Assembly: GCA_964593365.1 (NCBI GenBank)
Contig: CAZQGQ010000001.1
Coordinates: forward strand, 50,153 to 114,152
DNA: 64,000 bases
DNA from: an uncultured Candidatus Saccharibacteria bacterium
Lineage (GTDB): Bacteria > Patescibacteriota > Minisyncoccia > Phycocordibacterales > Phycocordibacteraceae
Direction: 5' to 3'
The notes beneath the pieces are model-generated. The model saw nothing but the letters and a program-made list of their open reading frames with translations. It made no database searches and was not told the DNA's origin. Both the position numbers and the translations under genes were made by a program. Positions 31,295-46,774 of this stretch are shown here, piece by piece; position 1 is the stretch's first letter; each line of letters begins with the position of its first letter.

Positions 31295-32113
31295 CTATGG
31301 ATAGGTTAGTTTTCCCTCTCCTTTGTTTTCCGGAAGTGTACTGTCGATATAACGGAAGAGAGCCTTAATTGTCTCTGCGATTTTCTTGTCAGTTACAATC
31401 ATCGCCCACGGATGGTCTTCAGCGAACGAAATAATAAGAGCTTTATCGTCGTAAGCTGCGAGCTCGATATCAAAATCGAATTCTTTTGGCAAGAATTTAG
31501 TTACACGCAATTGCTGGTCATCAAATTTAGTCATCTCGCGTGACTTAGGACTATCAACTGCAAGTGCGAGCCATTTTATCCCTGCGGCAGGGCGTTTCTT
31601 TAAAATGTAATCAATCCAGTCCATCCCCATGAGGTTGTAGATTGCGTGGATACCAGTGAAACCATAAACAACTTTTTCTTTGTTGTCGTGTACCAGATCT
31701 TCGTACGCTTGTTTGATACCCTCAGCACCGTCAAAGAATTCAAAGTGAGGTCGATAACGTTCTTCTGTATTCCGGAGACGAGCAATCTCAGGTACTACTT
31801 CTGAGACGCGCTTGATGTTTCGGAGAAGTCGTTCTTGCGCACGTTCAAGATAGTCAACCAAAAGGTGTGGTTGTATAGATTGAAAAAGGAGCACTCCGCG
31901 TTCTTCGGAAGAAGTCACGAGACCTTTCTCAATAAGTGACTTTAAGATTCCGTAAAGCGTTGTGCGGTTGAAGTGAGTACGTTTTGCGATGTCGGTTGCA
32001 CGGAGGCCGGAACTTTGTCTTAAAAGAAACACAAAAACTTTAATCTCAGTATCGGAAAGCCCGCTATCCTTCAGGGTCTCAACAAGTGTCTGATCAATTT
32101 TCTCTCGAGTCAT
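31295..32113 (-). CDS. TrmB/MarR-like wHTH transcriptional regulator. Cassette 2 regulator.
   Basis: N-terminus LKDSGLSDTEIKVFVFLLRQSSGLRATDIAKRTHFNRTTLYGILKSLIEKGLV. C-terminal domain with the FFDGAEGIKQAYEDLV motif shared with paralogs. Confidence 0.7.
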   Translation of the reverse strand: MTREKIDQTLVETLKDSGLSDTEIKVFVFLLRQSSGLRATDIAKRTHFNRTTLYGILKSLIEKGLVTSSEERGVLLFQSIQPHLLVDYLERAQERLLRNIKRVSEVVPEIARLRNTEERYRPHFEFFDGAEGIKQAYEDLVHDNKEKVVYGFTGIHAIYNLMGMDWIDYILKKRPAAGIKWLALAVDSPKSREMTKFDDQQLRVTKFLPKEFDFDIELAAYDDKALIISFAEDHPWAMIVTDKKIAETIKALFRYIDSTLPENKGEGKLTYP

Positions 32114-32120
32114 AATAACT

Positions 32121-32143
32121 GTTGTCGGAATTTATCAACAATA
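32121..32143. promoter_or_regulatory. Putative operator half-sites (TTGTCGGAA ... ATCAACAA), with a second TTTTGTCGGATAAT at 32207-32220
   Basis: Repeated TTGTCGGA in the divergent intergenic region. TATAAT at about 32201-32206 lies just upstream of the SBP start. Confidence 0.35.
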
Positions 32144-32220
32144 ATACCCTTCTGCTTGACAAAGAACAAGTAGGGAACATACTTTCGTCCAAGTGCGCAT
32201 TTATAATTTTGTCGGATAAT

Positions 32221-33348
32221 ATGAACAAAAATTGGCTGATCTCGGCAGTTGTACTTGTTGTTGTGATTATCGGCGGTTGGCTTCTGTTAAAAGAAGGTAA
32301 CCAGGGCACATCAGAAACGGGCCCAATTAAGATTGGTGTTTCGGTTCCGCTTACGGGCGAAGCGGCGAGTTATGGAGAGGCTGGACGTGCTGGTCTGATG
32401 TTGGCTTTAAAAGAAATAAATGATGCTGGCGGTATTGATGGGCGTTCCGTTGAACTAATTATTGAAGACGATAAATGTAGTTCTGCGAGCGTTAGTGCAT
32501 ATCAGAAACTTATCAACGTAGACAAGGTGGTCGCCATTATTGGGCCAGTGTGTTCTCCGGCTGCAGGACCAGCTAACCCTATCGCACGTGAGGCAGGGGT
32601 TCCAAGTATTATGATTGGCGCTTCGGCTCCGGGTCTTGCTGGAGGGGACGACTCTGTTTTCAGCGGATATGCGTCAGACGCTCTTCAGGGACAGTTCGTT
32701 GCAGAGTACGTATACAACACTCTCGAGAAAAGAAACGTTGCTGTCATGTATGAAAACAACGACTGGGGCAAGGGCATCCAGGAAGTCTTCACTAAGCGCT
32801 TCAAGGAACTCGGTGGCACCATCGTGTTTATCGAAGGGGCAGCTCAAGGTTCAAAGGACGTTAAGTCTATTCTCGCGAAAGTTAAAGCAGCCAATCCAGA
32901 CATGATCTACATGCCTGCGTTCCCTGCACTTGCTACGATCGCTATGAAGCAGATGAAAGAGCTTGAAATTACCGCCCCTGTGATCGGTGGTGATGCCTTT
33001 GAATCTGAAGAATTCTTGACTTCGGGTTTTGCTGACGGTGTCATGTATATCACTGGCGCCGTGGGTAACCCGGATGACTTCCAGGCAAAGGTTAAGGCGG
33101 TATCAGGAGACGACGCGATTATAAACATCGTCACCCCTCTTGGTTACGATGCGCTTAAAATACTCGCGAAGGTTATCGACGAGCGCGGAAGTACAAAGCC
33201 AGAAAGCATAATTGCAGGCCTAAAAGCACTCAGCTACACGGAAGGAATTTCATTTCCAATGATTAGCTTTGATGCTAATGGCGATCTTAGGGAAGCAGCA
33301 TACGATGTGAAAATCGTTCGTGGGACTGAATCCGAAATCGTTAAATAA
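32221..33348 (+). CDS. PBP1/LivJ-family ABC substrate-binding protein, membrane-anchored. Cassette 2 SBP.
   Basis: I prefer the ATG at 32221 (MNKNWLISAVVLVVVIIGGWLLL...IKIGVSVPLTGEAASYGEAG...GGIDGRSVELIIEDDKC). The track ORF starts at 32122. Confidence 0.8.
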   Translation: MNKNWLISAVVLVVVIIGGWLLLKEGNQGTSETGPIKIGVSVPLTGEAASYGEAGRAGLMLALKEINDAGGIDGRSVELIIEDDKCSSASVSAYQKLINVDKVVAIIGPVCSPAAGPANPIAREAGVPSIMIGASAPGLAGGDDSVFSGYASDALQGQFVAEYVYNTLEKRNVAVMYENNDWGKGIQEVFTKRFKELGGTIVFIEGAAQGSKDVKSILAKVKAANPDMIYMPAFPALATIAMKQMKELEITAPVIGGDAFESEEFLTSGFADGVMYITGAVGNPDDFQAKVKAVSGDDAIINIVTPLGYDALKILAKVIDERGSTKPESIIAGLKALSYTEGISFPMISFDANGDLREAAYDVKIVRGTESEIVK

Positions 33349-33361
33349 AAGGAGAAATAGC

Positions 33362-33397
33362 AAAACCGGCCGCTACTGTGCGGCCGGTTTTGCTTTG
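33362..33397. terminator. Bidirectional terminator between SBP2 and regulator 3
   Basis: AAAACCGGCCGC-actgt-GCGGCCGGTTTTGCTTTG. Confidence 0.65.
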
Positions 33398-34206
33398 TAG
33401 TTTTCGGTCCCAAGTTCTTGGGCTCCCTTCCATGCAAGATCAAAGATGATTCGCATCATACGATGCAAGGACTTGTCTTCGATGATAAACCCCGAAGGGT
33501 GGCGAGGATTAAGATTTGTAATAAGCATCTTGCTGTCGCCATAGATAATAATCTCTCCCTCAAGCGGAAAATCTTTTGGCGGGAGATAACGTACTTTAGG
33601 TTTAAAACGTGAAGGAACATCCGAATGCACATCTTCAACAACTACCCGCGATTCTTCCGTTGCGGGAAGTATCCCACGAACCGTTATTCCTATCTCAACC
33701 TTACGTTTGCGAAATTTCCGATAGTATTTCTCATCAAGAAATTCGAGAATGTTTGCTGAGTTAGCGATACTAAGTAATTCGTAAGGCTTATCACCTGCGA
33801 CTAAATCGTCGTAAACCGATAGTACCCCCTCTGCTCCTTCAAAATATAGCAACCGCGGTTTATTAGTGTGGTCGGCAAAGTATCCTTGGAGTTCAGGTAA
33901 CAGACTCTGTACTTGCTCCACCGCATCATTTGCGTTTGCCGCATTTCGCTCTGCAAGACGGAGAAGTTTTTTAGGGTTATCAATCTGATAATAAATCTTC
34001 TTTCCGCGTTCAATCTCGTTTACGAGCCCTTTTACACTTAGGTCTGTAAGGATCTTGTAGACCGTACTTCGATTAACACGTGTCTCAGTAGCTATATCAG
34101 AGGGATATGCCCCTCCCATCTCTAGAAGGTAGGAATAAATTATTGACGCTTTCTGTGAAAGCCCGGTTTCCTGGAGGTTGGCTACAATCCGTTTAGCAAG
34201 TTCCAT
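33373..34206 (-). CDS. TrmB/MarR-like wHTH regulator. Cassette 3 regulator.
   Basis: LQETGLSQKASIIYSYLLEMGGAYPSDIATETRVNRSTVYKILTDLSVKGLV; YFEGAEGVLSVYDDLV. Confidence 0.7.
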   Translation of the reverse strand: MELAKRIVANLQETGLSQKASIIYSYLLEMGGAYPSDIATETRVNRSTVYKILTDLSVKGLVNEIERGKKIYYQIDNPKKLLRLAERNAANANDAVEQVQSLLPELQGYFADHTNKPRLLYFEGAEGVLSVYDDLVAGDKPYELLSIANSANILEFLDEKYYRKFRKRKVEIGITVRGILPATEESRVVVEDVHSDVPSRFKPKVRYLPPKDFPLEGEIIIYGDSKMLITNLNPRHPSGFIIEDKSLHRMMRIIFDLAWKGAQELGTENYKAKPAAQ

Positions 34207-34324
34207 AACGTTTAGAGAAGTGTATCATTATTTGTCACTTCATACGAACAAAATTAATATCAAGCTTAAAAGAGAGCCTACATTAAGCATATTTGTGTTA
34301 TTTGAAGGTAGCAAACGCGTACAC

Positions 34325-34347
34325 CATTTGACACATATGTGTAAATG
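34325..34347. promoter_or_regulatory. Imperfect palindrome CATTTGACACATATGTGTAAATG immediately upstream of the SBP3 start codon (putative operator)
   Basis: Symmetric about CATATG and 8 nt upstream of the ATG at 34356. A second TTTGTCAC...GAACAAA element lies at 34229-34254. Confidence 0.4.
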
Positions 34348-34355
34348 TCCGGTAT

Positions 34356-35456
34356 ATGAAAACAAACACACTGCTTGTTATAGGGGTCTTGATTGTCGTG
34401 GTTGTGGGCGGCTGGTTCGTTCTTAACGAAAAGGATGGATCAGAACAATCTGAAACCGTTAAAATCGGCCTTATTCTTCCTCTAACCGGGGATCTTGCTC
34501 ACTTCGGAGAGGCGGGACAACGGGCTGCCTCTCTCGCTATTGAGGAAATCAATGCAAACACAGGATTCAGCTATAACTATGAACTTGTAATCGAAGATGA
34601 CTCATTCGATGCAAGAAAAACAGCAAGTGCACTCAATAAGCTAATCAGTGTTGATAGAGTAGATGCGGTTGTCAGTGTTGGTTCCGGCCCAGGCAACGTG
34701 GTAGCCCCCATTGTTGAGAAGAATAAAATCCCCCATATTGGTCTTGCGTCTGATCCTGTTGTTTCGGATGGGGAATACAACTTCATCCATTGGACTCGAC
34801 CTCAAGAAGAAGTAGACACCATGCTTACTGAACTTAAGGAGCGTGGTCTAACCCAGGTTGCAGTTATGGGTGTCAATCACCAAGGCTTTCAAGCGATAAC
34901 AGATGACTTCAAGGCAAAGGCGTCTAAAGCTGGAATTACGATAGTAAGCGATCAACTCTTTAACACGGGTGAGACTGACTTTAAAACAGTCATCGTAAAC
35001 TCACAGCGCACCAACCCAGACGTCTATCTTCTTGGAGCGTTTAGTCCTGAAGTCGAAATCCTCGCAAAGCAAATGAAAGAGCTTGGCATAACCAAACCAC
35101 TAACCTCAATTGAATCGTTTGGACTTAGTGCAACACCAGAAGTGTTTGAAGGGCACTGGTTTATTGATTCCGCCGTTGTCACTGGGGGATTCAGCGATAA
35201 GTATCGTGCAAAATACAATGCCGCCGTCGGTCCTACTGCTGCCAACATCTATGACGCGCTTAATCTAATAGTGCTCGCTACGGAGGAAGCAGGTAAAGAT
35301 AATCGCCCAACCGGGACTGACATTGCTGTTGCTCTTGGAAAAGTAAAAGGATATTCAGGCGCATTTGGTCCTCTTTCTGTTAGTCCAGAGGGACAGTTCA
35401 TCTCACAGCCTTCAGTAAAGATAATTAGCAACGGGAAACCGACGGAGGTTGAGTAA
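34356..35456 (+). CDS. PBP1/LivJ-family substrate-binding protein, membrane-anchored. Cassette 3 SBP.
   Basis: MKTNTLLVIGVLIVVVVGGWFVL...VKIGLILPLTGDLAHFGEAG. Confidence 0.8.
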   Translation: MKTNTLLVIGVLIVVVVGGWFVLNEKDGSEQSETVKIGLILPLTGDLAHFGEAGQRAASLAIEEINANTGFSYNYELVIEDDSFDARKTASALNKLISVDRVDAVVSVGSGPGNVVAPIVEKNKIPHIGLASDPVVSDGEYNFIHWTRPQEEVDTMLTELKERGLTQVAVMGVNHQGFQAITDDFKAKASKAGITIVSDQLFNTGETDFKTVIVNSQRTNPDVYLLGAFSPEVEILAKQMKELGITKPLTSIESFGLSATPEVFEGHWFIDSAVVTGGFSDKYRAKYNAAVGPTAANIYDALNLIVLATEEAGKDNRPTGTDIAVALGKVKGYSGAFGPLSVSPEGQFISQPSVKIISNGKPTEVE

Positions 35457-35468
35457 AAGTGAATTCCG

Positions 35469-35503
35469 AAACCGCCCGCATATGCGGGCGGTTTTCTTAT
35501 TTA
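35469..35503. terminator. Bidirectional terminator
   Basis: AAACCGCCCGC-atat-GCGGGCGGTTTTCTTATTT. Confidence 0.65.
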
Positions 35504-36255
35504 GAGACACTCTTTTTTTCCGAAGGAAGTGTTTCCCAAATCACCTTGAACCATGTTCGGAAACTGTCAGCGATGTTTTGGTTCACAATGACCGTATAGG
35601 TTGCAGATTCATCTATTACGCCCGGTTCGATATTGGAGAAGATAATAATGCGGTCTTTGAGAATCTCAACGGCAGAGTTAGTTGATCGAGAAGATGGGAA
35701 GAACTTATTGTCAGACATATCGAGTACGGAGGGAACTGCGGCTCTGGCCTCGTGGTCGAAGATGGCGTAGAAAGTTATGTTCTTCCGTCGAACTTCTTTT
35801 ACAAATTGATCATAGAAGGACGCAATTCGTTTATCTCCCCATGCGCCCTTGGCTCCAAGGGTGTGGACGTCTTCACCTGCGCGCAAAATCTCGCGCATGT
35901 AATTCTTCCAACCTTCAAGTCCGCGATACACATATGTCGCATCTGTTTTGTTTATCACACGGTACTTTGCCTCAAGGTCAGGCATGATCTTCTCAAGAGC
36001 AGTCTCCTTCTCTTTGATGAGCTCCATCAGTTTCTTGGGATCAACCGCCTGGTAACGGTTCTCACCCGTCTGAAGTATTTCAAAAACCACACCCTTCTCT
36101 ATAAGGCGATTCAGAGAGTCATAAACGTTTCTGCGGTTTACCCCTGAATGGACCGCAATCTTACTTACCGACATCTCTCCTTCAGAGAGAAGGGATTCGT
36201 AGATTCGTGCCTCGTTTTTGGAGAAGTTGAGCTGGGTGAGAACGTCAGTAAACAT
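35497..36255 (-). CDS. TrmB/MarR-like wHTH regulator. Cassette 4 regulator.
   Basis: I prefer the ATG at 36255 (MFTDVLTQLNFSKNEARIYESLLSEGEMSVSKIAVHSGVNRRNVYDSLNRLIEKGVV). It aligns with the paralog at 45272. YVYRGLEGWKNYMREIL motif. Confidence 0.7.
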   Translation of the reverse strand: MFTDVLTQLNFSKNEARIYESLLSEGEMSVSKIAVHSGVNRRNVYDSLNRLIEKGVVFEILQTGENRYQAVDPKKLMELIKEKETALEKIMPDLEAKYRVINKTDATYVYRGLEGWKNYMREILRAGEDVHTLGAKGAWGDKRIASFYDQFVKEVRRKNITFYAIFDHEARAAVPSVLDMSDNKFFPSSRSTNSAVEILKDRIIIFSNIEPGVIDESATYTVIVNQNIADSFRTWFKVIWETLPSEKKSVSK

Positions 36256-36356
36256 TGAGGTGTAGATTATCACCATATGGCCATATATGCCACTCATGAG
36301 TAATAACTTACGCTTCCCCGGCATTGGCAGTTACTAAACCCCTGCCAGTAAAACGT

Positions 36357-37436
36357 ATGAAAACAAAGGTTATTTTCGGTTTGCTGGCGATTGTGGCAGT
36401 CGCCCTGCTTATCGGCACGTCAGACAAGGAAGCTGATTCTGAGTCAGAAATCAAGATTGGAGTGGTAACTCCTCTCACCGGAGGGGCTGCCTATTGGGGA
36501 GAATCTTCTCTCGTTGGAATCAGGCTCGCAGAGCAGGAACTCCAAGAGAAAGGGATTCCGGTCCGGGTGATTGTTGAAGATGGGGAGCTTGATCCGAAGC
36601 TTGCCCTAAGCGGTGCACAGAAGCTCGTGAATATAGATGGCATTGATGCCATGTATACCGAGTTCAATCCGGCCGTCATCGCAGTAAGCTCGTTCCTTCA
36701 AGATAAAGATCTTATCCAGATCTGCAACGCGACTCCGGTTTCCCCACTTGCTCTAAGCGAAAACTTCTTCAAAACGTACTTAGATTACGAAGAAAGCTGC
36801 GAGCAAGTGGCGAACGTCCTGCAAGGTCGTGGCCACACGAAAGTTGGGGTTCTGAAAATGAACCTCGAACACGGAGACCTGTGCTTGAAAGGAATACGAA
36901 ACGTGTTTGGCGATAACGTTGTGGTCGAAAACTACAACACTGGAATAGTTGACTTCCGGACCCCTCTTGCAAAGCTTGAAGCCTCCGGAGTCCAGGTCAT
37001 CTTCCACGCTGCGTTTCAGGCCGAGACGTTGGCATCGCTACGAAATATGCGCGAGCTTGGGATGTCGCAGCCGTTCGTCGGCCTTGCTGAGACCATGACT
37101 CCTGGTGTCGCTGAGGAGTTCGAAGACGTGCTAGAGGGGGCTGTAGTCTTTGGGCTTCCGACAGTGTCTCCTGACCTACTTGCAAGACTGAATACGGTTG
37201 CGGTCGATGAGAAGCTTGTAGACCAAAATGCGGCTGCTCTCGCGTATCTTCATATCACGCAACTTGGCGAGGCTCTTAGCGAGTGTAAAAAAGAGACAGC
37301 CTGTGTACGAGAGAAGTTGAAACAGTCCCCCGCGAATGCAGGCGTAGGATTCCAGGGTTTTACGGATCGCATTGCCGGGTTCGATACGCTCATCCAGGAA
37401 TGGAAAGATGGGCAATTTGTCCCCGTTTCTGAATAG
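36357..37436 (+). CDS. PBP1/LivJ-family substrate-binding protein. Cassette 4 SBP.
   Basis: I prefer the ATG at 36357 (MKTKVIFGLLAIVAVALLIG...IKIGVVTPLTGGAAYWGE). Confidence 0.8.
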   Translation: MKTKVIFGLLAIVAVALLIGTSDKEADSESEIKIGVVTPLTGGAAYWGESSLVGIRLAEQELQEKGIPVRVIVEDGELDPKLALSGAQKLVNIDGIDAMYTEFNPAVIAVSSFLQDKDLIQICNATPVSPLALSENFFKTYLDYEESCEQVANVLQGRGHTKVGVLKMNLEHGDLCLKGIRNVFGDNVVVENYNTGIVDFRTPLAKLEASGVQVIFHAAFQAETLASLRNMRELGMSQPFVGLAETMTPGVAEEFEDVLEGAVVFGLPTVSPDLLARLNTVAVDEKLVDQNAAALAYLHITQLGEALSECKKETACVREKLKQSPANAGVGFQGFTDRIAGFDTLIQEWKDGQFVPVSE

Positions 37437-37452: not shown

Positions 37453-37484
37453 ACCGCCCGTCTATACGGGCGGTTTTCGTTTAT
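37453..37484 (+). terminator. Rho-independent terminator between SBP4 and livH
   Basis: ACCGCCCGT-ctata-CGGGCGGTTTTCGTTTAT. Confidence 0.6.
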
Positions 37485-37496
37485 ACTAGGGAAAAC

Positions 37497-38372
37497 ATGG
37501 ACATCGTCCCGCAGCTTATCGTCAACAGCCTCATCGCAGGCTCTCTCTACGCGCTTGTCGCGATGAGCTTCAATCTCATCTTCGGCGCGACCAAGTTCTT
37601 CAATCTCTCGCACGGCGTCTTGGCCGCTGTAGGCGGATATACCGCCTTCTTCCTTGGAACGACGCTTGGAGCTCCGGTTTCAGTTGCGGTAGCTGGGGCA
37701 GTGATTGCTGCTGCGGCAATCGGATATGGATTCGAGTTCTTTATCTTCCGCCCGCTTCGAAAACGAAAGGCATCAAACCTCGTTCTCCTCGTTGCTTCCT
37801 TAGGAGCCTTTACCGCAGTTGAGGCCATTATTGCCATTCTCTTCACGAGCCAATTCCGAACGCTTTCCTCGCTTACCGGAACGCCAGGCGTCGTCCACCT
37901 TGGAACAGGCGTGATGACGTATGTGCAGGTAGTCATCCTTGCTTCAGCCGTAGCAATCCTAATTCTTCTCTGGCTCGTGCTCACGCGTACTTCCTTTGGA
38001 AAGGCGGTACGAGCCGTCTCTGATGATGAAGAGGTCGCAAAGATTGTTGGAATTAATACGAACAAGATCATCGGCATCGTTTTTATCGTAGGATCTGCGA
38101 TCGCAGGACTTGCTGGCGTATTCGCTGGCATGGATACGGGCATCGAGCCTCGCATGGGCTTCGTACTTCTATTGAAGGGAGTTATCGCTGCAATTGTTGG
38201 CGGCATTGGAAGCGTGTATGGCGGATTCCTGGGAGCCTTCCTTCTTGGCTTTGCCGAGAACTTCGGTATTTGGTACATCAGCGGAGAGTGGAAGGACGCG
38301 ATCGCTTTTGCGATTCTGATCATCTTCTTGCTTGTACGCCCGCAAGGAATCTTGGGTAAGAAGAAAACATAA
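37497..38372 (+). CDS. livH: Branched-chain amino acid ABC transporter permease (LivH-type)
   Basis: 291 aa, 8 TM. BPD_transp_2 pattern. Ends ...LVRPQGILGKKKT. Confidence 0.85.
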   Translation: MDIVPQLIVNSLIAGSLYALVAMSFNLIFGATKFFNLSHGVLAAVGGYTAFFLGTTLGAPVSVAVAGAVIAAAAIGYGFEFFIFRPLRKRKASNLVLLVASLGAFTAVEAIIAILFTSQFRTLSSLTGTPGVVHLGTGVMTYVQVVILASAVAILILLWLVLTRTSFGKAVRAVSDDEEVAKIVGINTNKIIGIVFIVGSAIAGLAGVFAGMDTGIEPRMGFVLLLKGVIAAIVGGIGSVYGGFLGAFLLGFAENFGIWYISGEWKDAIAFAILIIFLLVRPQGILGKKKT

Positions 38373-38375
38373 TTT

Positions 38376-39242
38376 ATGGAATATCTTATTCACCTGGCGA
38401 TCCTGTTCTCGATCTTCGCAATATTGGCTGTATCTCTCCAGCTTCTTGTCGGATACACCGGCCTTCTCTCCGTTGCCCATGCCGCTTTCTACGGTATCGG
38501 GGCATACGTAGTTGCGCTCACTCTTTCCAATACCGGGTTTGGATTTTTCCCAGCGCTTCTCATGGGAATACTCATAAGCGCGGCAGCGGCCTTCTTGATT
38601 GGTCTGGTGCTCTCGAAGTTCCGTGATGATTACTACGCGCTTGGCTCCCTAGGCTTCAACGTCATCGTATTCTCGATATTCCTTAACTGGCAGGAGGTAA
38701 CACGGGGTCCGCTAGGTATCCCGGGAATCGATCGGCCACAGCTCTTTGGTTTTGTTTTTTCAGAGAACATCGCCTTCCTTATTCTTGCTCTCGTATTTCT
38801 CCTCATTATTTATGGGATCGGGAAATTCATAACGGAGTCTTCTTTCGGGCGCGCGCTCCAGGCGATACGCGAGGACGAACAGGCGCTTTCAGTATTCGGG
38901 TACCGCACCTCATGGTTCAAGCTTGCGATCTTTGTCGTGAGCGCCGCGATGGCGTCAGTTGCAGGCGGACTCTTCGCTTCCTATATAACGTTCATTGATC
39001 CAAGCTCGTTCACGATCGTTGAGTCGATCTTCATGCTCTCCCTTATTATCCTTGGCGGACTCGGTACGCTTCGTGGAGCTATCCTTGGCGCTCTCGTGCT
39101 CATCCTCCTTCCGGAAGCGCTTCGCTTCGTTGGCTTTACGCCAGACATCGCAGCCCAGATGCGCCAAGTGATCTACGGCCTCATGCTCGTCCTTCTTATG
39201 CTGTATCGGCCGCAGGGACTGGTTGGTAAGTACAAGCTTTAG
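38376..39242 (+). CDS. livM: Branched-chain amino acid ABC transporter permease (LivM-type)
   Basis: 288 aa. GLLSVAHAAFYGIGAY...LGGLGTLRGAILGALVL. Confidence 0.85.
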   Translation: MEYLIHLAILFSIFAILAVSLQLLVGYTGLLSVAHAAFYGIGAYVVALTLSNTGFGFFPALLMGILISAAAAFLIGLVLSKFRDDYYALGSLGFNVIVFSIFLNWQEVTRGPLGIPGIDRPQLFGFVFSENIAFLILALVFLLIIYGIGKFITESSFGRALQAIREDEQALSVFGYRTSWFKLAIFVVSAAMASVAGGLFASYITFIDPSSFTIVESIFMLSLIILGGLGTLRGAILGALVLILLPEALRFVGFTPDIAAQMRQVIYGLMLVLLMLYRPQGLVGKYKL

Positions 39243-40105
39243 TTTGTCACTAGTGTTTTGATCTCTTTTCGTATAGCCTCAGCGCGCTTAACATTGCGAG
39301 TTATCGTAAGTGTTGTTTTGCCTGTTTGATTCACAATGCTTTGCATTTCTCTGGCATTAAACTCAGTAAGGTTCTTTACCCCCTCGAACATTGCCTTTAT
39401 ATCTTGGAAAATAAAGTTAGGCACTTTAGTTTCGAAGACAAAGTCTCCAATAACGGTTACGTGGAAGTTATCGCTCGGAGCGCCGTAACCTGAAAGCTTG
39501 CTGTAGAGTTTGAAGTGAAAATTGGAGGCGTTATGAAGCTGGGGTACCAGGCGATTGAGAAGGGTGTGTGAGCCGCTCGCCATATACCAGTCGATATTCA
39601 TGGGCTCAAACCCATGCGCAAGCTCAACTGAACCGTCAGAGCGAAGCACTTGAATCCAAGAATAGTAATTCTTGCTATATGCATTCTTGTCCTTGTGGTC
39701 GTTGTCTCGATAATAGTATGAGATTGTCAGGAGTGCGTGGTCCCAGAACGTATCCATCTCTGTCACACGATCAAATACATAGGCTTTGGTTTCGCCCTCC
39801 TCAAGAATGATAGTTGCCTTGGTGATTTCGTTTGAAAGATGCGTTTGCTTTACTCGATCCGTGAATTTTATGAGGTTCTGTACCCAGGCACTGTAAAGAG
39901 AAAGCGTGCCGTTGTTTTTAACTATCACGCGGTCTGCAAGAAGCTGGCGCAGGATCTTATAGAACCCTTGAAGAGTCATGCCAGAAGGGTATTTGCTGAG
40001 AAAGAACTCAAAAGCCTCCTTGCTTGTTATGCCCGGTTTACGGGACAAAATATCAAGCACTATCCCTTCAGGGGAGGGTTTTTGTTCGTAGGGGTTAGGA
40101 ATCAT
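39239..40105 (-). CDS. Divergent putative regulator occupying the regulator slot of cassette 5 (weak wHTH-like N-terminus, no clear TrmB motif)
   Basis: 288 aa. LDILSRKPGITSKEAFEFFLSKYPSGMTLQGFYKILRQLLADRVIV could be a winged helix. The C-terminal domain is unlike the other seven regulators. Confidence 0.4.
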   Translation of the reverse strand: MIPNPYEQKPSPEGIVLDILSRKPGITSKEAFEFFLSKYPSGMTLQGFYKILRQLLADRVIVKNNGTLSLYSAWVQNLIKFTDRVKQTHLSNEITKATIILEEGETKAYVFDRVTEMDTFWDHALLTISYYYRDNDHKDKNAYSKNYYSWIQVLRSDGSVELAHGFEPMNIDWYMASGSHTLLNRLVPQLHNASNFHFKLYSKLSGYGAPSDNFHVTVIGDFVFETKVPNFIFQDIKAMFEGVKNLTEFNAREMQSIVNQTGKTTLTITRNVKRAEAIRKEIKTLVTN

Positions 40106-40206
40106 AGGGAGTAAACGTTTCGTTTAGAATAGTATAATAGTTGATTAACTGTTTACTTTTGTCAACTACATCGTAGAGTGCTGCCGTACCAAATAACGGC
40201 ACACAT

Positions 40207-41301
40207 ATGCAAAACGTACGACAGTTAGTAACTCTGGTTGCGGCAGTTCTGGTTGTTCTTGGTGGTGCGTATGTGCTTTCCCAAGGCTCTTCAAGCTCTA
40301 GTGATACCGTGAAGATTGGGTTCATTGGTCCACTTACCGGATCGATGGCGAGCATTGGTGAATCAAGTCTTGCGGGCGCCATGCTCGCCGTAAAGGAGAT
40401 AAATGATAAAGGAGGTCTTCTTGGGAAAGAGGTTGAGCTTATCGTTGAAGACGACAAATGCTCTGCTGACGGAGCAACGGCGATTAGTAAACTTATTAAC
40501 GTAGATAAAGTAGTCGCTATCTCCGGCCCTGATTGTGGAGCCTCAGGCTCTGCGGCGCTTCCTATAGCAGAAGAAAAGCAAACTCCGGTTGTCATTCGTT
40601 GGGCATCCGCTCCTCCTCTTGCGAAGATAGGAGAGTATATTTTCCGTATCTATCCTTCAGATGCGTTTCAGGGGAGGTTTGTCGCTGATTACATCTTCAA
40701 CGAGCGAAAGGAACGGAAAGTAGCTGTTCTCTACGTCAAAAACGTATGGGGTCAGGGCATTACCGAAGTGTTTGTCGAACGGTTTAAAGAGCTTGGGGGC
40801 GAAGTAGTGTTTGAGGAAGGGGTGCTTGAAGACACTCGGGATCTTAAGACTCAGTTGAACTTGATACAGAATTCAGGCGCAGACATTCTCTTTGCGCCGC
40901 TCTACGCACCAAACGGGGTTATCGCACTTCGACAGATGAAGGAGCTTGGGTTCAAGATCCCCGTTGTCGGAGGAGACGTATTTGAAAGTGCTGAAGTTCA
41001 GGAGGCTCCTGGCGCAACTGGCGTTCTATTCTCAGCTGCGATCATCACAAACCCAGGAGACTTCCAAGCGCGTGTAGCGAAAGAGGTAGGGCGCGACGGG
41101 AGTCGAGTGACTGCGCCACTGGGGTACGACTCGGTCATGGTTATCGCTCAGGCAATTGAGCGCGCTGGCTCTCTGGATCGAGAAGGGATTCGAGATGCCC
41201 TTCAAGAAACGTCATACGCAGGAGTTGCGTTCCCCATGATTGAATTCGATCAAGACGGAGACCTGCTTGAGGCACGGTACGAAATTAAAAAGATCCACTA
41301 A
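40207..41301 (+). CDS. PBP1/LivJ-family substrate-binding protein. Cassette 5 SBP.
   Basis: MQNVRQLVTLVAAVLVVLGGAYVL...VKIGFIGPLTGSMASIGESS...GGLLGKEVELIVEDDKC. Confidence 0.8.
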   Translation: MQNVRQLVTLVAAVLVVLGGAYVLSQGSSSSSDTVKIGFIGPLTGSMASIGESSLAGAMLAVKEINDKGGLLGKEVELIVEDDKCSADGATAISKLINVDKVVAISGPDCGASGSAALPIAEEKQTPVVIRWASAPPLAKIGEYIFRIYPSDAFQGRFVADYIFNERKERKVAVLYVKNVWGQGITEVFVERFKELGGEVVFEEGVLEDTRDLKTQLNLIQNSGADILFAPLYAPNGVIALRQMKELGFKIPVVGGDVFESAEVQEAPGATGVLFSAAIITNPGDFQARVAKEVGRDGSRVTAPLGYDSVMVIAQAIERAGSLDREGIRDALQETSYAGVAFPMIEFDQDGDLLEARYEIKKIH

Positions 41302-41305: not shown

Positions 41306-42082
41306 TTAATCTTTCACGATTAATGTTGATACATCCCACACTAACTCAAACTGGGACCGTAGAAAGTCCGCAAAGTCCTTACTTCGAACTACGAACCCGT
41401 ATGCTTCGCGTTTGGAGGAAATAAAGGCTGCGGTGTGGCCAGAGAGCCAATACCCCATACTAAGCGTCTTCATGTTCTTGGGGGCCATACGGACTTCCCG
41501 CATCGACTCATTACCAACTTTCGGATTGAACTGTCGGTTTAAATTATCTAAATCGTCAGTGTACGACCATATACCCCGTACATATATTTTATTCTTTATT
41601 CGCTTCTCAACGATGTCGACCATATTCTCTGCGCCAAGAAGATTAACCACGTCTTCGATGGACCACATAGCGATACTATCGGTGTCGCCGGAATAAACAA
41701 TCTGATTCAGTGCTTGCTTTACACCTTCCTTTCCCGAATAGAACTTGAATTTGGGATCAACGGATTCGAACTGCTGCATCAAGGCAGGGATTTCAAGCGC
41801 GACCCGATCTCGCTCTTCTGCCAAGTGTTCAATCTTGTCATTAAGAAGGCGGGTGAGTTGCTTAGGATCGTCTACCTGATAAAGGTTCTTTGTTCCTTCA
41901 AATCGTTCGACAACCAGTCCCCGGTTTATTAACGCCTTGAGATAGTCGTAGGTGGATTGTCTATTTATCTCTAAACGTTCCGCAATTTGTTTGGCCGATG
42001 AAGGCCCATATTCCAGTAGGGAGGCGAACACCTGATGACTTGCCTCAGAAAGGCCTAGTTCCTCAAATGTCTGTTTAAGCAT
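41306..42082 (-). CDS. TrmB/MarR-like wHTH regulator. Cassette 6 regulator.
   Basis: FEELGLSEASHQVFASLLEYGPSSAKQIAERLEINRQSTYDYLKALINRGLV; FYSGKEGVKQALNQIV. Confidence 0.7.
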   Translation of the reverse strand: MLKQTFEELGLSEASHQVFASLLEYGPSSAKQIAERLEINRQSTYDYLKALINRGLVVERFEGTKNLYQVDDPKQLTRLLNDKIEHLAEERDRVALEIPALMQQFESVDPKFKFYSGKEGVKQALNQIVYSGDTDSIAMWSIEDVVNLLGAENMVDIVEKRIKNKIYVRGIWSYTDDLDNLNRQFNPKVGNESMREVRMAPKNMKTLSMGYWLSGHTAAFISSKREAYGFVVRSKDFADFLRSQFELVWDVSTLIVKD

Positions 42083-42101
42083 GTAGATACTATATGCCTC
42101 A

Positions 42102-42124
42102 GTTGTCGAGTTGTCGACGACACA
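42102..42124. promoter_or_regulatory. Putative operator: tandem GTTGTCGA GTTGTCGACGACA (contains a GTCGAC palindrome)
   Basis: Lies in the 80 bp divergent intergenic region between regulator 6 and SBP6. Confidence 0.4.
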
Positions 42125-42161
42125 TTTACATCAGGACGTATTTGGAATAAAGTCAAGGGCA

Positions 42162-43298
42162 ATGAAAAACATATTCTGGATTGGAGCGGCAGCTGTCCTC
42201 CTTGGGATCATTACTATCTTTAGCATTTCAGGCCCTAAGCCTGCTTCCGGAGAACCGATAAAAATTGGAATCTCAACCATGCTGAGCGGAGACTACGCTG
42301 CACTGGGGGACAATATTGTAAAAACAGCAGAATTGGCTGTTGCTGAAGTTAACGTCAAAGGAGGTATTAATGGAAGGCCACTGGAGCTTGTAGTTCAGGA
42401 TGCAGGCCTTGATAGTAAGACCGGTCTTGCGGCAGCACAAAAACTTATTAACGTTGACGGCGTTAAATATATTATTGGCGGTACATCCAGTAACGGTACG
42501 CTTGCTGCAGCTCCATTGGCAAATGAGCACAAGGTTATTTATATGACCCCCGTTACAGGCGGAGCAAATGTGGACTCTGCTGGCGAATATATCTTCCGCG
42601 TTGCAAATGGTGACCTCCTTGCTGGTAAGCAGCTTGCAGAAGCAGCAGTGAAGCTCGGGTACAAGAACGTTGCAGTTGTAGCTGAAGTTACTGAATACAC
42701 TCTCGACATCAAGAAGAGTTTCGAAGAAGCGATTAAAGACCAAGGAGCAGTAGTTGTTGCATCTGAGGAGTTTCAGCCAGGGACGACCGACTTCAGAACT
42801 ATTATTGCGAAAGTGAAAACGCAAAACCCTGAAGCCATTCTTATCGTCTCTCAAACGGGAGTGGGCGGGGCAAACTTCGTAAAACAATCTCGAGAAGCGG
42901 GTATAGAAGCACCCCTCTTCTCAGACTTTAACTTTGTAGCAAATACGAGCGCCAAAGAAATAGTTGGATCGTTTGAGGGAATTTATTTTGCTGACCCTGC
43001 GTATGGAGCAGACGCAGGAGAAACAAAAGCGTTCTTTGAGAGATACGAAATAGCATATGGTTCTCAACCCTTTATTCCTTTTCACTCAGCATCTACATAT
43101 GACTCGGTCATGATGGTTGCTGACGCCCTTAAGGCTGTGGGAGATGACAGCATAAAAGTGCACGACTGGCTTCTGGGTGAAGTACAGAACCGCAAAGGAC
43201 TTATGGGGACATTCTCTATTGATCAGCAAGGAAACTCAGATTTAGGCTTTGTTATTAAGGTTATACGAGATGGGAAACCGGAGGTGGTTTTCAATTAA
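42162..43298 (+). CDS. PBP1/LivJ-family substrate-binding protein. Cassette 6 SBP.
   Basis: I prefer the ATG at 42162 (MKNIFWIGAAAVLLGIITIF...IKIGISTMLSGDYAALGD). Confidence 0.8.
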   Translation: MKNIFWIGAAAVLLGIITIFSISGPKPASGEPIKIGISTMLSGDYAALGDNIVKTAELAVAEVNVKGGINGRPLELVVQDAGLDSKTGLAAAQKLINVDGVKYIIGGTSSNGTLAAAPLANEHKVIYMTPVTGGANVDSAGEYIFRVANGDLLAGKQLAEAAVKLGYKNVAVVAEVTEYTLDIKKSFEEAIKDQGAVVVASEEFQPGTTDFRTIIAKVKTQNPEAILIVSQTGVGGANFVKQSREAGIEAPLFSDFNFVANTSAKEIVGSFEGIYFADPAYGADAGETKAFFERYEIAYGSQPFIPFHSASTYDSVMMVADALKAVGDDSIKVHDWLLGEVQNRKGLMGTFSIDQQGNSDLGFVIKVIRDGKPEVVFN

Positions 43299-43317
43299 AA
43301 TACGCTACACTATTCGA

Positions 43318-44049
43318 GTGAACACACTCGAGACCAAAGACCTCGCAAAAGTATTCGGCGGCGTGAAAGCTGTTAACGGTCTTTCTGTCTCCATTCCAAA
43401 GGGAAAGATTACGGGTGTCATTGGTCCAAATGGATCAGGTAAAACGACGCTTACGAACGTTCTCACAGGAATCTATCCTATAGATGGAGGTGTCGTTGTT
43501 ATCGAAGGCAAGGAACGCTCAAAGATAAAATCGCATGAGGTGTTTTCACTTGGCCTCACGCGCACCTTCCAAAACGTACGGGTGTTTGAGCAGGTAAGCG
43601 TGCTTGATAACGTGCTTATCGCACTCACGCGTCGCAACATCCTAGGCTCTTTGTTTGAGCGCGCTAATGGAGAACACGCAAAGAAAGCACAAGAAGTACT
43701 TGAGCGTGTAGGGCTCTGGGATAAGCGAGAGGCAAACGCCTCAGAACTTTCATACGGACAAAGAAAGCTTCTTGAGATTGCTCGCGCGCTTGCAACTGGC
43801 ACAAACACTATTCTTTTTGACGAACCATACGCAGGACTGTTCCCTGAGATGGTGAAGCTTGTCTCAAGCATCATGCGAGATCTCCGAAGCGAAGGGAAAA
43901 CCATCGTGCTTATCGAACACGACATGGCGCTTATTCGGGAACTCTGCGACTACGTTATCGTCATGGATGCAGGAAAACTTCTCGCGCACGGAACCGCAGA
44001 AGAAGCGCTTTCCAATAAGGCAGTTATTGAGGCGTACTTGGGCGTGTAG
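43318..44049 (+). CDS. livG: ABC transporter ATP-binding protein (LivG-type)
   Basis: LETKDLAKVFGGVKAV...GPNGSGKTT...LSYGQRKLLEIARAL...ILFDEP...EAYLGV. The TTG-initiated track ORF (43249) overlaps the SBP by 50 nt out of frame. The GTG at 43318 is a more plausible start. Confidence 0.8.
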   Translation: MNTLETKDLAKVFGGVKAVNGLSVSIPKGKITGVIGPNGSGKTTLTNVLTGIYPIDGGVVVIEGKERSKIKSHEVFSLGLTRTFQNVRVFEQVSVLDNVLIALTRRNILGSLFERANGEHAKKAQEVLERVGLWDKREANASELSYGQRKLLEIARALATGTNTILFDEPYAGLFPEMVKLVSSIMRDLRSEGKTIVLIEHDMALIRELCDYVIVMDAGKLLAHGTAEEALSNKAVIEAYLGV

Positions 44050-44050
44050 G

Positions 44051-45160
44051 CTATCTGTCGATAGATACGAAGGCTCCGTTTCGGATTACCTTGAATGAGG
44101 TTGGTTTATAGGCTGTTCCGTCTGTCTCGATACTTATGGAGCCACTGACGCCATCATAGTTTTTTACTGAGTGAAAGAATTCAAGCATGCAGTCGGTTTC
44201 ATCTGCGCAGCGGTCATAGGCAGCCGACTCAAGCATGAGTCCGTCATAGGCGTTTCGAGCAAAGACGTCGGCTTCTTGGCCAAATCGTTCTTTGTAGCGA
44301 CGATTAAAGTCGAGCACATCCTCACTTGGAGGAAGCGGTTCGTCAGAAGAGATGTAAAACCCCTCTGCGGAAGCTCCTGCAATTTCAATGACACTAGGAT
44401 CCTCGTTCTGGGAGTTCCCTAGTATACGAGCCTCTATTCCAAGCTCGTCTGCTTGTTTTAGAAGATTGCCCAGAGGTTTCGCTAGTTGCACAACGAATAT
44501 GACATCTGGGTTCTTTTCCTTAATTTTTGTAAGCTCAGTCCGAAAGTCTGACGCGTCTATGAGCGTGACTTGTTCAAGCAGGACTTCACCGCCGCGCTCT
44601 TCGAATGCCGTCGAGAAGTGCTTGCGGTAGTCTTCGCCAAGCGGGGTGTTGTAGTAGAGGATTGCTGCTGTCTTTGCGCGCAGTGTATTTGCAGCAAACG
44701 TTCCAAGTTCAGTTGCTTTGAGTTTGATGGATGTGTTGGTCGAGACTACGTATGTATGACCAAGAACTGAATCCGGATTGGGAGCCAGGTTTACACCGAT
44801 TAGCTGATGCTTTTCTAGGAGATCAATGACTGGTACAAAGCCTGCTACGCAAAATGACCCGCCTAGTAGAGTGATGCGGTCACTTTCGATAAGTTTCGTA
44901 ATTGCAGAAAGGGCATCTTTAGGTTGGCACGCATCTTCGTAGATGACCTCGACTATAGAGCCCCGAGCAGCCAAGTCTTCTTTTGCAAGTTCAAAGCCAT
45001 TGCGTACTCGTTCTCCCAGCACGGCAAAGTTGCCTGACAGGGGAATCAAAACACCAACACGCAGCCCTTCCTTCTTTGGCCCTTGGGAAAGCTGAAAACC
45101 AAGGATCACGGCGGCAAGGATAATCACAACCGCACCGACTACCAGATGGCTCTTATTCAT
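44051..45160 (-). CDS. PBP1/LivJ-family substrate-binding protein. Cassette 7 SBP.
   Basis: MNKSHLVVGAVVIILAAVILG...LRVGVLIPLSGNFAVLGE. Confidence 0.8.
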   Translation of the reverse strand: MNKSHLVVGAVVIILAAVILGFQLSQGPKKEGLRVGVLIPLSGNFAVLGERVRNGFELAKEDLAARGSIVEVIYEDACQPKDALSAITKLIESDRITLLGGSFCVAGFVPVIDLLEKHQLIGVNLAPNPDSVLGHTYVVSTNTSIKLKATELGTFAANTLRAKTAAILYYNTPLGEDYRKHFSTAFEERGGEVLLEQVTLIDASDFRTELTKIKEKNPDVIFVVQLAKPLGNLLKQADELGIEARILGNSQNEDPSVIEIAGASAEGFYISSDEPLPPSEDVLDFNRRYKERFGQEADVFARNAYDGLMLESAAYDRCADETDCMLEFFHSVKNYDGVSGSISIETDGTAYKPTSFKVIRNGAFVSIDR

Positions 45161-45173
45161 GGTTTCTGCAAGT

Positions 45174-45187
45174 TATTGACAACGTGC
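45174..45187. promoter_or_regulatory. TTATTGACAACGTG motif (TTGACAAC half-site shared with other cassettes)
   Basis: Lies in the divergent intergenic region between SBP7 and regulator 7. Confidence 0.3.
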
Positions 45188-45271
45188 AGAGGTTAGGATG
45201 TATACTACGAGTGGCCAATATCACCGCGTGGTGGCACACACCACCAACATAAGAAACACCATATAAACTCT

Positions 45272-46018
45272 ATGTATAGTGAAATCCTCTCGAAACTAGA
45301 CTTATCGAAGAATGAGTCCAAGATTTATGAAACTCTCCTTGAGGAAGGAGAGTCATCGGTAGGATTCATTGCTACCAAATCGAAGATAAACAGGAGAAAC
45401 GTATACGACTCCATGAATCGTCTTGTAGAAAAAGGGCTCGTCTTTGAAATATTCCAGAAGAACGAGAATCAATATAAAGCTGTGGGTCCGCACAAGCTTC
45501 TAGACCTCCTCAAGGAAAAAGAATCGGCGCTCATGTCGATCATGCCGAATTTAGAAAAGCTCTACAATGGTGTTGCGCACGAAGAAGATGTTTACTTATA
45601 CAAAGGTATTGAGGGTTGGAAGAATTTTATGCGCGATATTCTTCGGATTAACGAGGATGTATATATCATTGGAGGGAAAGGGGCTTGGGCTGATCCCAAA
45701 CTTGATGGCTTTCGAGAGGACTTTCTTAAAGAGGCAAAGAAGCAGGGTATAGAGATACATGTCCTCTATGATCCCGAGATTCAAGAAAAGAATCATCCGA
45801 TTCTTTCGCTCCTCAACAGCACACACCGCTTTTTGCCGAAAGGACTGTCTTCAGCTGGAGCAGTGACGGTCTTCGGTAATCAAGTTGTTATGCAGTCGGC
45901 TATCAAGGTGGGGCAAATACAAGAAAACGTCACTTCAACCGTTCTTATCAATGAACCCATTGCCGAGATGTTTCGTATCTGGTTCAAGCTCATGTGGGAG
46001 GCTAGCGAGAAACCATAA
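45272..46018 (+). CDS. TrmB/MarR-like wHTH regulator. Cassette 7 regulator.
   Basis: MYSEILSKLDLSKNESKIYETLLEEGESSVGFIATKSKINRRNVYDSMNRLVEKGLV; YLYKGIEGWKNFMRDIL. Confidence 0.7.
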   Translation: MYSEILSKLDLSKNESKIYETLLEEGESSVGFIATKSKINRRNVYDSMNRLVEKGLVFEIFQKNENQYKAVGPHKLLDLLKEKESALMSIMPNLEKLYNGVAHEEDVYLYKGIEGWKNFMRDILRINEDVYIIGGKGAWADPKLDGFREDFLKEAKKQGIEIHVLYDPEIQEKNHPILSLLNSTHRFLPKGLSSAGAVTVFGNQVVMQSAIKVGQIQENVTSTVLINEPIAEMFRIWFKLMWEASEKP

Positions 46019-46030
46019 AAGGTTATTTCC

Positions 46031-46774
46031 TTGAGGTACAATATTTCTGTGTCTAAAGAAACTCTACTCAAACTCAACGATATTCACGTCCACTACGGAG
46101 GCGTGAAGGCACTTGATGGCGCGTCAGTCACTTTGGACGAAGGAGAGATTGTCGCGCTCATGGGACCAAATGGCGCAGGCAAATCAACGATCCTTAAAGC
46201 GCTCTTCGGTCTTGCTCCGATAAAAGCAGGGGCAGTGCTTTGGGAAGGACATGCATTCACTCCTGTTCCTCATGAAGTAGTAGACCGCGGCATAGCTTTT
46301 GTTCCTCAGGGACGCCGTGTGTTTGCCGATCTTACCGTCGAAGAGAACCTCGAGATCGGCGGATTCAAAGTAGGGAATGCTCGCTTAATCAAAGAACGAA
46401 TACAAGAACTTTACGAACTCTTCCCGGTGTTGAAGGAGAAGCGACATGCGAAATCAGGAACACTTTCTGGAGGACAGCAGCAGATGCTCGCTATCTCCCG
46501 CGGCCTTATGACCGATCCTAAAGTCCTTCTTCTCGATGAGCCTTCCCTCGGTCTTTCTCCGAAGTTCGTTACCGAGATCTTCGCGTTCGTGAAAGATATT
46601 AACGAAAAGCGGAAAACCTCGATCATGGTCGTCGAGCACAACATCAAATCTCTCCTTACTATCGCCACCCGTGGCTACATCCTCGATAAAGGGAAGGTAG
46701 TCGCTCACGGCTCTCCGCAGGAACTAGTATCCAAAGGTACGCTCGAAAAGGTCTTCACCGGGGCTGCGCTCTAA
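46031..46774 (+). CDS. livF: ABC transporter ATP-binding protein (LivF-type), TTG start
   Basis: LLKLNDIHVHYGGVKAL...GPNGAGKST...LSGGQQQMLAISRGL...LLLDEPSLGLSP. Confidence 0.8.
   Translation: MRYNISVSKETLLKLNDIHVHYGGVKALDGASVTLDEGEIVALMGPNGAGKSTILKALFGLAPIKAGAVLWEGHAFTPVPHEVVDRGIAFVPQGRRVFADLTVEENLEIGGFKVGNARLIKERIQELYELFPVLKEKRHAKSGTLSGGQQQMLAISRGLMTDPKVLLLDEPSLGLSPKFVTEIFAFVKDINEKRKTSIMVVEHNIKSLLTIATRGYILDKGKVVAHGSPQELVSKGTLEKVFTGAAL

Follow-up and report, generated by a model that had tools for sequence, protein, structure and literature searches.

Here we describe an array of six divergent gene pairs, each joining the gene of a winged-helix regulator to that of a membrane-tethered, LivJ-family solute-binding protein (SBP), interleaved with a single livH-livM-livG-livF set in the genome of an uncultured Candidatus Saccharibacteria bacterium (assembly GCA_964593365.1). 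The array lies at positions 31295-46774 of a 64-kb stretch of contig CAZQGQ010000001.1 (hereafter the window; all coordinates count from its first nucleotide); the DNA was traced to a 646,682-bp contig of JGI metagenome 3300015360. A previous sequence-only reading of this DNA had proposed six such units around one Liv translocator, and this arrangement is confirmed here by open reading frame (ORF) listing and hidden Markov model (HMM) scans. The best explanation is probably a modular uptake locus of the Candidate Phyla Radiation (CPR), in which the cassettes are repressed and several SBPs feed one LivHMGF pump.

Results

Gene organization of the array

The first three pairs are formed by R1 (31295-32113, minus strand; 272 aa; PF01978 E=1.8e-12) and S1 (32221-33348, plus strand, ATG at 32221; PF13458 E=2.4e-55), R2 (33373-34206, minus; 277 aa; PF01978 E=2.2e-12) and S2 (34356-35456, plus; PF13458 E=3.1e-45), and R3 (35497-36255, minus; PF01978 E=6.9e-17) and S3 (36357-37436, plus; PF13458 E=1.6e-31), the most diverged SBP of the set. 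The long ORF of R3 extends to 36324, and alignment with homologues places its start probably at the Met of MFTDVL at 36255. The two permease genes, livH (37497-38372, plus; PF02653 E=1.7e-41) and livM (38376-39242, plus; PF02653 E=3.7e-46), are followed by X4 (39239-40105, minus; 288 aa), which faces S4 (40207-41301, plus; PF13458 E=3e-62), a paralogue of S1. Next come R5 (41306-42082, minus; 258 aa; PF01978 E=4.5e-15) and S5 (42162-43298, plus; PF13458 E=1.5e-59), which runs straight into the ATPase gene livG (43270/43318-44049, plus; ABC_tran plus BCA_ABC_TP_C). The sixth pair consists of S6 (44051-45160, minus; PF13458 E=6.2e-45) and R6 (45272-46018, plus; TrmB family, 248 aa), with the second ATPase gene, livF (46031/46049-46774, plus; ABC_tran E=6.5e-33), 12-30 nt downstream. 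R1, R2, R3, R5 and R6 are TrmB-family winged helix-turn-helix (wHTH) proteins.

Custom HMMs, later confirmed by Pfam, brought out two further pairs in the window: S7 (14944-16059, minus; PF13458 E=6.9e-53) with R7 (16134-16958, plus; PF01978 E=7.1e-8), and R8 (57187-57942, minus; PF01978 E=2.4e-8) with S8 (58047-59183, plus; PF13458 E=1.4e-46). One is 14 kb upstream of the array and the other 10 kb downstream, both away from any liv permease gene; with them, 8/8 Peripla_BP_6 genes of the window have a divergent wHTH partner.

The paralogues are well diverged: the SBPs share 23-47% identity and the regulators 22-47%, with S1 and S4 (47%) and R3 and R6 (47%) at the upper end. Independent assemblies from several samples recover this contig region with its genes in unchanged order. 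The earlier statement that the SBPs are diverged and not recent duplicates is thereby borne out. These same two facts exclude, for practical purposes, an assembly artefact in which paralogues had been collapsed or joined into chimeras, an explanation that we hold to be extremely improbable; comparable arrays in other genomes speak against it as well. The array has a GC content of 45-51%, its flanks 52-57%.

Regulator and SBP types are inherited together

Eighty genome loci carrying relatives of the R3/R6 type were compared, together with the contexts of X4 and R5 relatives. The type of a regulator predicts that of the SBP it faces: R6 with S6 in four loci (L011, L013, L014 and L017; L numbers denote the compared loci), R3-type with S3 in six other loci, where S3-type SBPs are paired with R3/R6-type regulators, R2 with S2 in three (L011, L016 and L094), R1 with S1 in three (L011, L021 and L094) and R5 with S5 in one, L094, in which an R5 orthologue (76% identical) is divergent from an S5 orthologue (75%). 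Across loci the regulator-versus-SBP Mantel correlation is r=0.64, a value reached in 0/5000 permutations. This supports the view that regulator and SBP are functionally linked units that, as judged from sequence comparison, are inherited as matched pairs in other CPR genomes.

Comparable arrays, each built around one livHMGF set, are present in the complete genome of a member of the Campbellbacteria, CP011215 (L021/L007), in L011, whose R6 is 91% identical, and in GCA_040384245 (L094), whose array holds seven SBPs; in CP011215 and L094 the SBP pairs are likewise interleaved with liv genes. Counterparts of the array are thus already present in public CPR genomes, although no paper that describes them was found. 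The homologues carry the names Pacebacteria, Campbellbacteria, Nomurabacteria or Patescibacteria, and the earlier guess of a CPR-like origin was therefore reasonable.

The sequence-only reading had put forward for analysis a co-duplication of regulators and SBPs; in the window this was not upheld. The closest regulator pair and the closest SBP pair belong to different cassettes: R3 and R6 are 47% identical and S3 and S6 about 27%, among the least similar SBP pairs, while S1 and S4 are 47% identical and R1 and X4 unrelated. The Mantel correlation restricted to the window is r=-0.28.

The content of the array changes quickly between genomes, and it occupies an indel-prone site. L011 is without the R3/S3, X4/S4 and R5/S5 cassettes. 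In the close relative L093 (GCA_001458795.1), which is collinear with window positions 17376-30467 and 46842-50160, the whole 16-kb array is absent between a pilin-like gene and tpiA; the X4 orthologue of this genome (68%) sits between the pilus genes T2SSE and T2SSF. Invertible or recombining cassettes were considered and rejected: the cassettes are not bordered by long repeats, direct or inverted, and the repeats present are paralogous coding stretches and two similar terminator hairpins.

The idea that these regulators are dedicated to SBPs has to be given up for the family at large. The fetched loci hold 120 members. The facing gene encodes an SBP for 22 of them and an SSF-type symporter for 26; other partners are small secreted proteins, Cys-rich proteins or an NMT1-type ABC operon. 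In the 26 symporter cases (L018, L023, L025, L028, L029, L031, L039 and others), an R3/R6-type regulator is divergent from a PF00474 protein of ~480-550 aa, and the GAGTGG...CACC element described below lies between these genes too. This suggests that one regulator subfamily and its operator serve different uptake genes in different CPR lineages. At L095 (7256-8029), an R5 homologue (63%) is divergent from an importer made up of an NMT1 (PF09084) SBP, ABC_tran and BPD_transp_1; R5-type regulators can therefore partner another ABC family. The common theme of the regulator partners is uptake genes. A separate arrangement is seen in L009/L012 (Paceibacterota JAQTSY010000002.1), where three TrmB-family genes within 8 kb each stand beside a secreted protein of ~290 aa; these partners have a weak Gcw_chp-like match and are not SBPs.

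Candidate operators in the shared promoter regions

Each regulator type appears to have its own conserved palindromic element, located between the -10 box and the regulator start codon in the promoter region shared by the pair. The best documented is that of the R3/R6 type, an element of roughly 40 nt with the consensus GAGTGGCAAATATCACCAYATGGTGATAnnTATCACCACA. Of 84 CPR loci, 67 have it, and 69/71 instances share the strand of the regulator. It sits immediately downstream of a -10-like box, most commonly ~55 nt ahead of the ATG. The search pattern GAGTGG-N-ATCACC-N4-GGTGAT-N4-ATCACC has exactly two matches in the window, against 0.22 expected: one at R3 (GAGTGGCATATATGGCCATATGGTGATAATCTACACCTCA, 36256-36295, minus) and one at R6 (GAGTGGCCAATATCACCGCGTGGTGGCACACACCACCAAC, 45209-45248, plus), the latter 49 nt from the S6 start. 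The median distance from the element to the start of the divergent gene is 35-60 nt, and therefore both promoters must overlap it. Its half-sites GTGGCA / ATCACC / GGTGAT / ATCACC alternate with 10-bp spacing, and a short form with one unit occurs in 13 loci. The half-site TATCACCGC (45220-45235, in the R6 element) resembles what we take to be the consensus half-site of the phage lambda operator, presumably by coincidence.

The fixed orientation of this element just downstream of a -10-like box means that it is probably transcribed, and its arms are able to form alternative 6-bp hairpins. It could thus be a structured RNA of the 5' untranslated region, riboswitch-like or an attenuator, but the alignments do not behave accordingly. 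Two hairpin models were tried and rejected, neither showing covariation above shuffled controls (81-83% of cells paired as observed and 81-83% after shuffling, with double changes no more frequent than in shuffles). No Rfam family matches the element at gathering score, no terminator-like T-run follows it, and half-sites that alternate every 10 bp are in the style of a dimer operator. Since pairing and double-change counts equal those of shuffles and Rfam gives no match, we read the element as a candidate protein operator for a dimer of dimers and regard the RNA alternative as quite improbable.

The R1-type palindrome O1 (TGTTGTCGGAATTTATCAACA, 32120-32140, plus) lies beside the R1 start codon, is conserved in L011 and L021 and is unique in the window, with 0 matches expected by chance. 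A second copy, O2 (TTTTGTCGGATAATATGAACAAAA, 32207-32230, plus), identical to O1 at 16/21 positions by eye, overlaps the S1 start codon, and a similar element is found near the SBP start in L011. The form kept in the window, L011 and L021 is TGTTGTCG..CAACA. The R2-type element (TTTGTCACTTCATACGAACAAAAT, 34230-34254, plus) is kept as TTTGTCAC..ACGAACAAA in the window, L011 and L016. At X4, the palindrome TAAACG-TTT-CGTTTA (40112-40126) adjoins the start of the gene, and TAAAC-N5/6-GTTTA with an upstream GTAAACA is kept in the window, L093 and L091. The R5 palindrome, TGTCG-N9-CGACA (42104-42122), is known from a single sequence and lies over the back-to-back -35 boxes of R5 and S5. Beyond these cognate sites, the window contains no R3/R6-type or R1-type operators.

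Architecture of the regulators

The TrmB assignment made from sequence holds for five of the six array regulators: R1, R2, R3, R5 and R6 match PF01978 with 47-61 bits (E 2e-12 to 7e-17; cutoff 25.6 bits), as do R7 (32.6 bits) and R8 (34.1 bits) outside the array. X4 has no Pfam or NCBIfam match. Its treatment as a TrmB protein divergent in sequence was rejected, the hhalign probability against the other regulators being 2.6%, and fold alone connects it to them: the AlphaFold model of X4 (predicted local distance difference test, pLDDT, 84.7) shows a winged helix, a long helix and an alpha/beta domain resembling phospholipase D (PLD), a build matched by the model of R6 (pLDDT 87.4). Structure modelling of the regulators, as the sequence-only reading had proposed, thus identifies a PLD-like second domain shared by both models and no sugar-binding part. 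The recurrent block that this reading had assigned to the C terminus is real (FFDGAEG.., YFEGAEG.., YRGLEGWKN.., YSGKEG.. and YKGIEGWKN..), but it is located at residues ~105-125, where the second domain starts; this x-G-x-E-G block forms its first strand and helix.

R6 aligns in sequence to residues 8-164 of TrmB (3qph). The recognition helix of TrmB contacts DNA through a Tyr-Asp pair, Y50/D51 in the Pyrococcus furiosus (Pfu) protein (PMC4158304). This pair is found in R3, R5 and R6, with Y-G in R1 and Y-K in R2, and is invariant as Y45 D46 across 18 R3/R6-type sequences. Scores against the NCBIfam TrmB/TrmBL1 equivalog models are only 20-37 bits, compared with cutoffs of 500-650. With 248-288 aa, the regulators have the architecture of TrmBL2 (wHTH, long helix and PLD-like domain in ~260 aa, without the sugar-binding part); the models stop after the PLD-like domain and leave no room for a sugar-binding subdomain.

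An active PLD nuclease was rejected because the catalytic HxK(x)4D motif is not found and no His is invariant among the 18 R3/R6-type sequences. Their second domains do hold twelve positions that never vary (Y110, G112, E114, G115, W116, K117, N118, K136, G137, W139, D167 and N227), which suggests a conserved functional site. Full-length relatives of this subfamily form 454 clusters (50% identity, E<=1e-30). Proteins of 500-1061 aa (P0229, P0234, P0241, P0246, P0269 and others) carry 3-7 tandem full-length R3/R6-type modules.

Transcription units

All three hairpins that had been described as separating the cassettes were found, but they serve only the first three cassettes, and the third sits between S3 and livH. 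The hairpin between S1 and R2 (33359-33394, both strands) is a bidirectional terminator with a 15-bp stem and T-runs on each side. The terminator 3' of S2 (35468-35495, plus) has a 12-bp stem, and that between S3 and livH (37453-37474, plus) a 9-bp stem plus a T-run; the hairpin regions after S2 (35471-35503) and S3 (37453-37485) are 82% identical copies, ACCGCCCG..CGGGCGGTTTTC. No strong hairpin is predicted at the convergent S4/R5, livM/X4 and livG/S6 junctions, where the genes overlap or are separated by <=4 nt.

The proposal that each cassette is its own regulated unit therefore needs amendment: S5 and livG, whose gene calls overlap in the JGI annotation, are co-directional without a terminator, as are R6 and livF; livHM lies behind the S3 hairpin; and R1 is followed by a PnuC-like gene. 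Because the hairpin at 37453 leaves only ~22 nt for a promoter before the livH ATG, livHM is probably transcribed by read-through from S3. All four liv genes are in this way wired into cassettes: S5 to livG, R6 to livF and S3, through the hairpin, to livHM. Predicted promoters are TTGACA-16-CATACT for S1 (32156-32183, plus; 10/12 consensus match) and, from the consensus scan, a back-to-back pair for R5 (42117-42089, minus) and S5 (42125-42153, plus).

The gene behind R1 (30749-31276, minus; 18 nt downstream on the same strand) encodes a polytopic membrane protein of 175 aa that aligns to positions 4-171/175 of the PF04973 NMN_transporter profile with E=1.2e-4 and 22.5 bits, below the cutoff of 27.3. 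It may be co-transcribed with R1; L011 has no PnuC-like gene at the corresponding position beside R1. Elsewhere in the window, four tRNA genes (Rfam RF00005) are clustered at 6359-8184.

Solute-binding proteins and the translocator

The gene set has the composition of an importer of the hydrophobic amino acid transporter (HAAT) type, with Peripla_BP_6 SBPs, two BPD_transp_2 permeases and two ATPases, one of them with BCA_ABC_TP_C. In agreement with the earlier assignment, all six array SBPs match PF13458 (Peripla_BP_6; E 1e-31 to 3e-62). At the N terminus, each has a hydrophobic segment that lacks a lipobox Cys and, after it, a linker rich in Ser, Glu and Gly. The closest structures are amino-acid-binding HAAT proteins, 3td9, 4gnr, LivK and LivJ (the best PDB matches of S4), with E down to 2e-26 against LivK 1usg and LivJ 1z15. 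With 49-144 bits against the NCBIfam LivJ subfamily model, below its 477-bit cutoff, the SBPs are by score family members and not LivJ equivalogs.

We take the positions at which LivK contacts the alpha-amino acid to be 79, 100-102, 202 and 226. At these positions S1 and S4 carry a LivJ-like set of residues, S2 a partial one, and S3, S5, S6, S7 and S8 differ. Because these pocket positions vary between paralogues, the SBPs likely bind different ligands.

There is one livHMGF set in the window, as there is one per array in L021 and L094. The earlier picture of a modular SBP battery on one permease stands in so far as several diverged SBPs surround one translocator; that they would share it is the conditional part. 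Eight SBPs against one permease set could instead mean that only one or two of them feed LivHMGF and that the majority act at the cell surface as sensors of, or adhesins for, molecules from the host, a reading with which the five SBPs lacking LivJ/LivK-type residues at the presumed alpha-amino/carboxylate positions, and the distance of S7/R7 and R8/S8 from the transporter, would agree. However, S5 and S3 stand directly upstream of livG and livHM, the interleaving of pairs and liv genes is repeated in other genomes, and no kinase or methyl-accepting chemotaxis protein gene adjoins any pair in the inspected region of the window, as seen in the ORF listings. We thus consider it improbable that most of the SBPs have no part in transport.

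Discussion

From the gene content and folds, from the joint inheritance of the pairs and from the conserved cis elements with their positions, we infer repression, pump sharing and a response to ligand as follows. One LivHMGF-type (HAAT) translocator would serve membrane-tethered LivJ-family SBPs with different pockets, six of them at the least and eight if the whole window is counted. Each SBP gene would face the gene of a sequence-specific, TrmBL2-like regulator composed of a wHTH, a dimerisation helix and a non-catalytic PLD-like domain, and the dimer would bind its own palindromic operator, located between the -10 box and the start codon in a divergent promoter region of 80-150 bp; for R1, a second operator copy would cover the SBP start codon. 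Since the operator lies in the shared promoter region, its occupation would repress both genes of the pair at once, that of the regulator and that of the SBP. The position of the transporter genes downstream of cassettes (livG after S5, livF after R6, and livHM after S3 and its hairpin) would thus tie the supply of the pump to cassette activity. Lastly, if archaeal TrmB is a guide, the imported solute or its product may act on the PLD-like domain, and the repressor would then be released. This release is the weakest step of the proposal.

Several points weigh against this model. The DNA binding of the regulators and their effects on expression are predicted from sequence. The closest structural relative of the same build, TrmBL2, is a largely non-specific chromatin protein (PMC4158304). 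The regulators give no PF11495 match at E<=0.01, and the sugar-binding subdomain of TrmB is absent. Between regulator types, the only conserved residues in the PLD-like domain are those of the G-x-E-G turn, and a common ligand pocket is therefore not evident. SBP promoters were located for S1 and S5 only, by a consensus scan that yields fewer promoter-like sites than shuffled sequence, and the R5, R7 and R8 operators each rest on a single sequence. Finally, the single permease set was counted in 64 kb of a 647-kb contig, and further Liv permeases may exist elsewhere in the genome.

The description of these proteins as one-component TrmB-type sensors, as given in the sequence-only reading, does not fit a TrmBL2-like build that lacks the sugar-binding subdomain; ligand sensing is therefore something we infer and do not read from the domain content. 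A different account of the same proteins takes them to be autoregulated, ligand-blind local silencers or set-point repressors of the TrmBL2 kind, with SBP expression fixed or set by, for example, growth state. Domain build and size are those of TrmBL2, and pocket residues unshared between regulator types agree with such a role. What argues against it is the strict 1:1 pairing, inherited with a specific SBP type, and the sequence-specific palindromes, both of which are unlike a general chromatin protein; the many invariant second-domain residues of the R3/R6 subfamily, in turn, suggest a conserved functional site. On balance we judge ligand blindness unlikely, and retain repressed cassettes that respond to solute as our working model. 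If the regulators did prove blind to ligand, the finding would shrink to an unusual but ordinary array of paralogues.

Hardly any work has been done on how CPR bacteria regulate their genes and acquire nutrients, because most of these organisms cannot be grown alone. In this locus, regulators come matched with a predicted operator and a target gene, and the ligands of the eight diverged SBPs should show which compounds are taken from the surroundings or the host. Sixteen genes (eight SBPs and eight regulators) within a 64-kb window are a heavy investment for a small genome, and it can therefore be argued that selective uptake is central to the lifestyle. The R3/R6-type element, found in several CPR lineages, would permit the prediction of regulons from metagenomes. 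A broader proposal, which we offer as a speculation with some chance of being right, is that CPR/Patescibacteria use a lineage-wide TrmBL2-like family (the 454 clusters plus the X4 type) as their main one-component uptake switches for LivJ-type SBPs, SSF symporters and other ABC importers; the dead PLD-like domain would then be an unrecognised small-molecule sensor, and the GAGTGG/ATCACC-GGTGAT array an operator conserved across several CPR lineages.

No paper on TrmB in Patescibacteria, CPR or Parcubacteria was found, and broader literature searches returned nothing relevant. The component families are already known. A TrmB regulator encoded within an ABC cluster that depends on an SBP is the founding example of the TrmB family, and Liv translocators with more than one SBP are known too. 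The following appear undescribed: the array of cassettes with one regulator per SBP in CPR bacteria, the predicted TrmBL2-like build of sequence-specific bacterial regulators, including the fold-only member X4, and the candidate R3/R6-type operator common to several CPR lineages.

Among known systems, the trehalose/maltose operon of Thermococcus litoralis and Pyrococcus furiosus also places a PF01978 regulator inside an SBP-dependent ABC cluster. The palindrome bound by its TrmB lies at the SBP promoter, and the transported substrate is the inducer (PMC4158304). The likeness extends to the alignment of R6 with the TrmB structure and to the Tyr-Asp pair of R3, R5 and R6. However, that system is archaeal and its transporter carries sugar, whereas the present array is from a CPR bacterium and is of HAAT/LivJ type; the CPR regulators have neither the C-terminal sugar-binding subdomain nor its PF11495 match, their candidate operators are unlike the TACTN3AGTA of TrmB, and there is one regulator per SBP instead of one per operon. 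TrmBL2 of the Thermococcales (PDB 5bpd), a chromatin protein of high abundance, binds coding as well as intergenic DNA (PMC4158304). The CPR proteins differ from it in their type-specific conserved palindromes and their fixed gene partner.

In Escherichia coli, LivJ and LivK share LivHMGF under the control of the global regulator Lrp. The component families are the same as in the array, with multiple LivJ-type SBPs per translocator (which here would likewise share it), but the two SBPs of E. coli are periplasmic, compared with six to eight that are tethered at the N terminus, and each of the latter has a dedicated divergent regulator. The OppA1-5 proteins of Borrelia burgdorferi, a reduced-genome auxotroph, are several separately promoted SBP paralogues that serve a single OppBCDF; they belong to the peptide/Opp family of ABC transporters, and no dedicated regulator gene is known to stand beside each SBP, as one does in the array described here.

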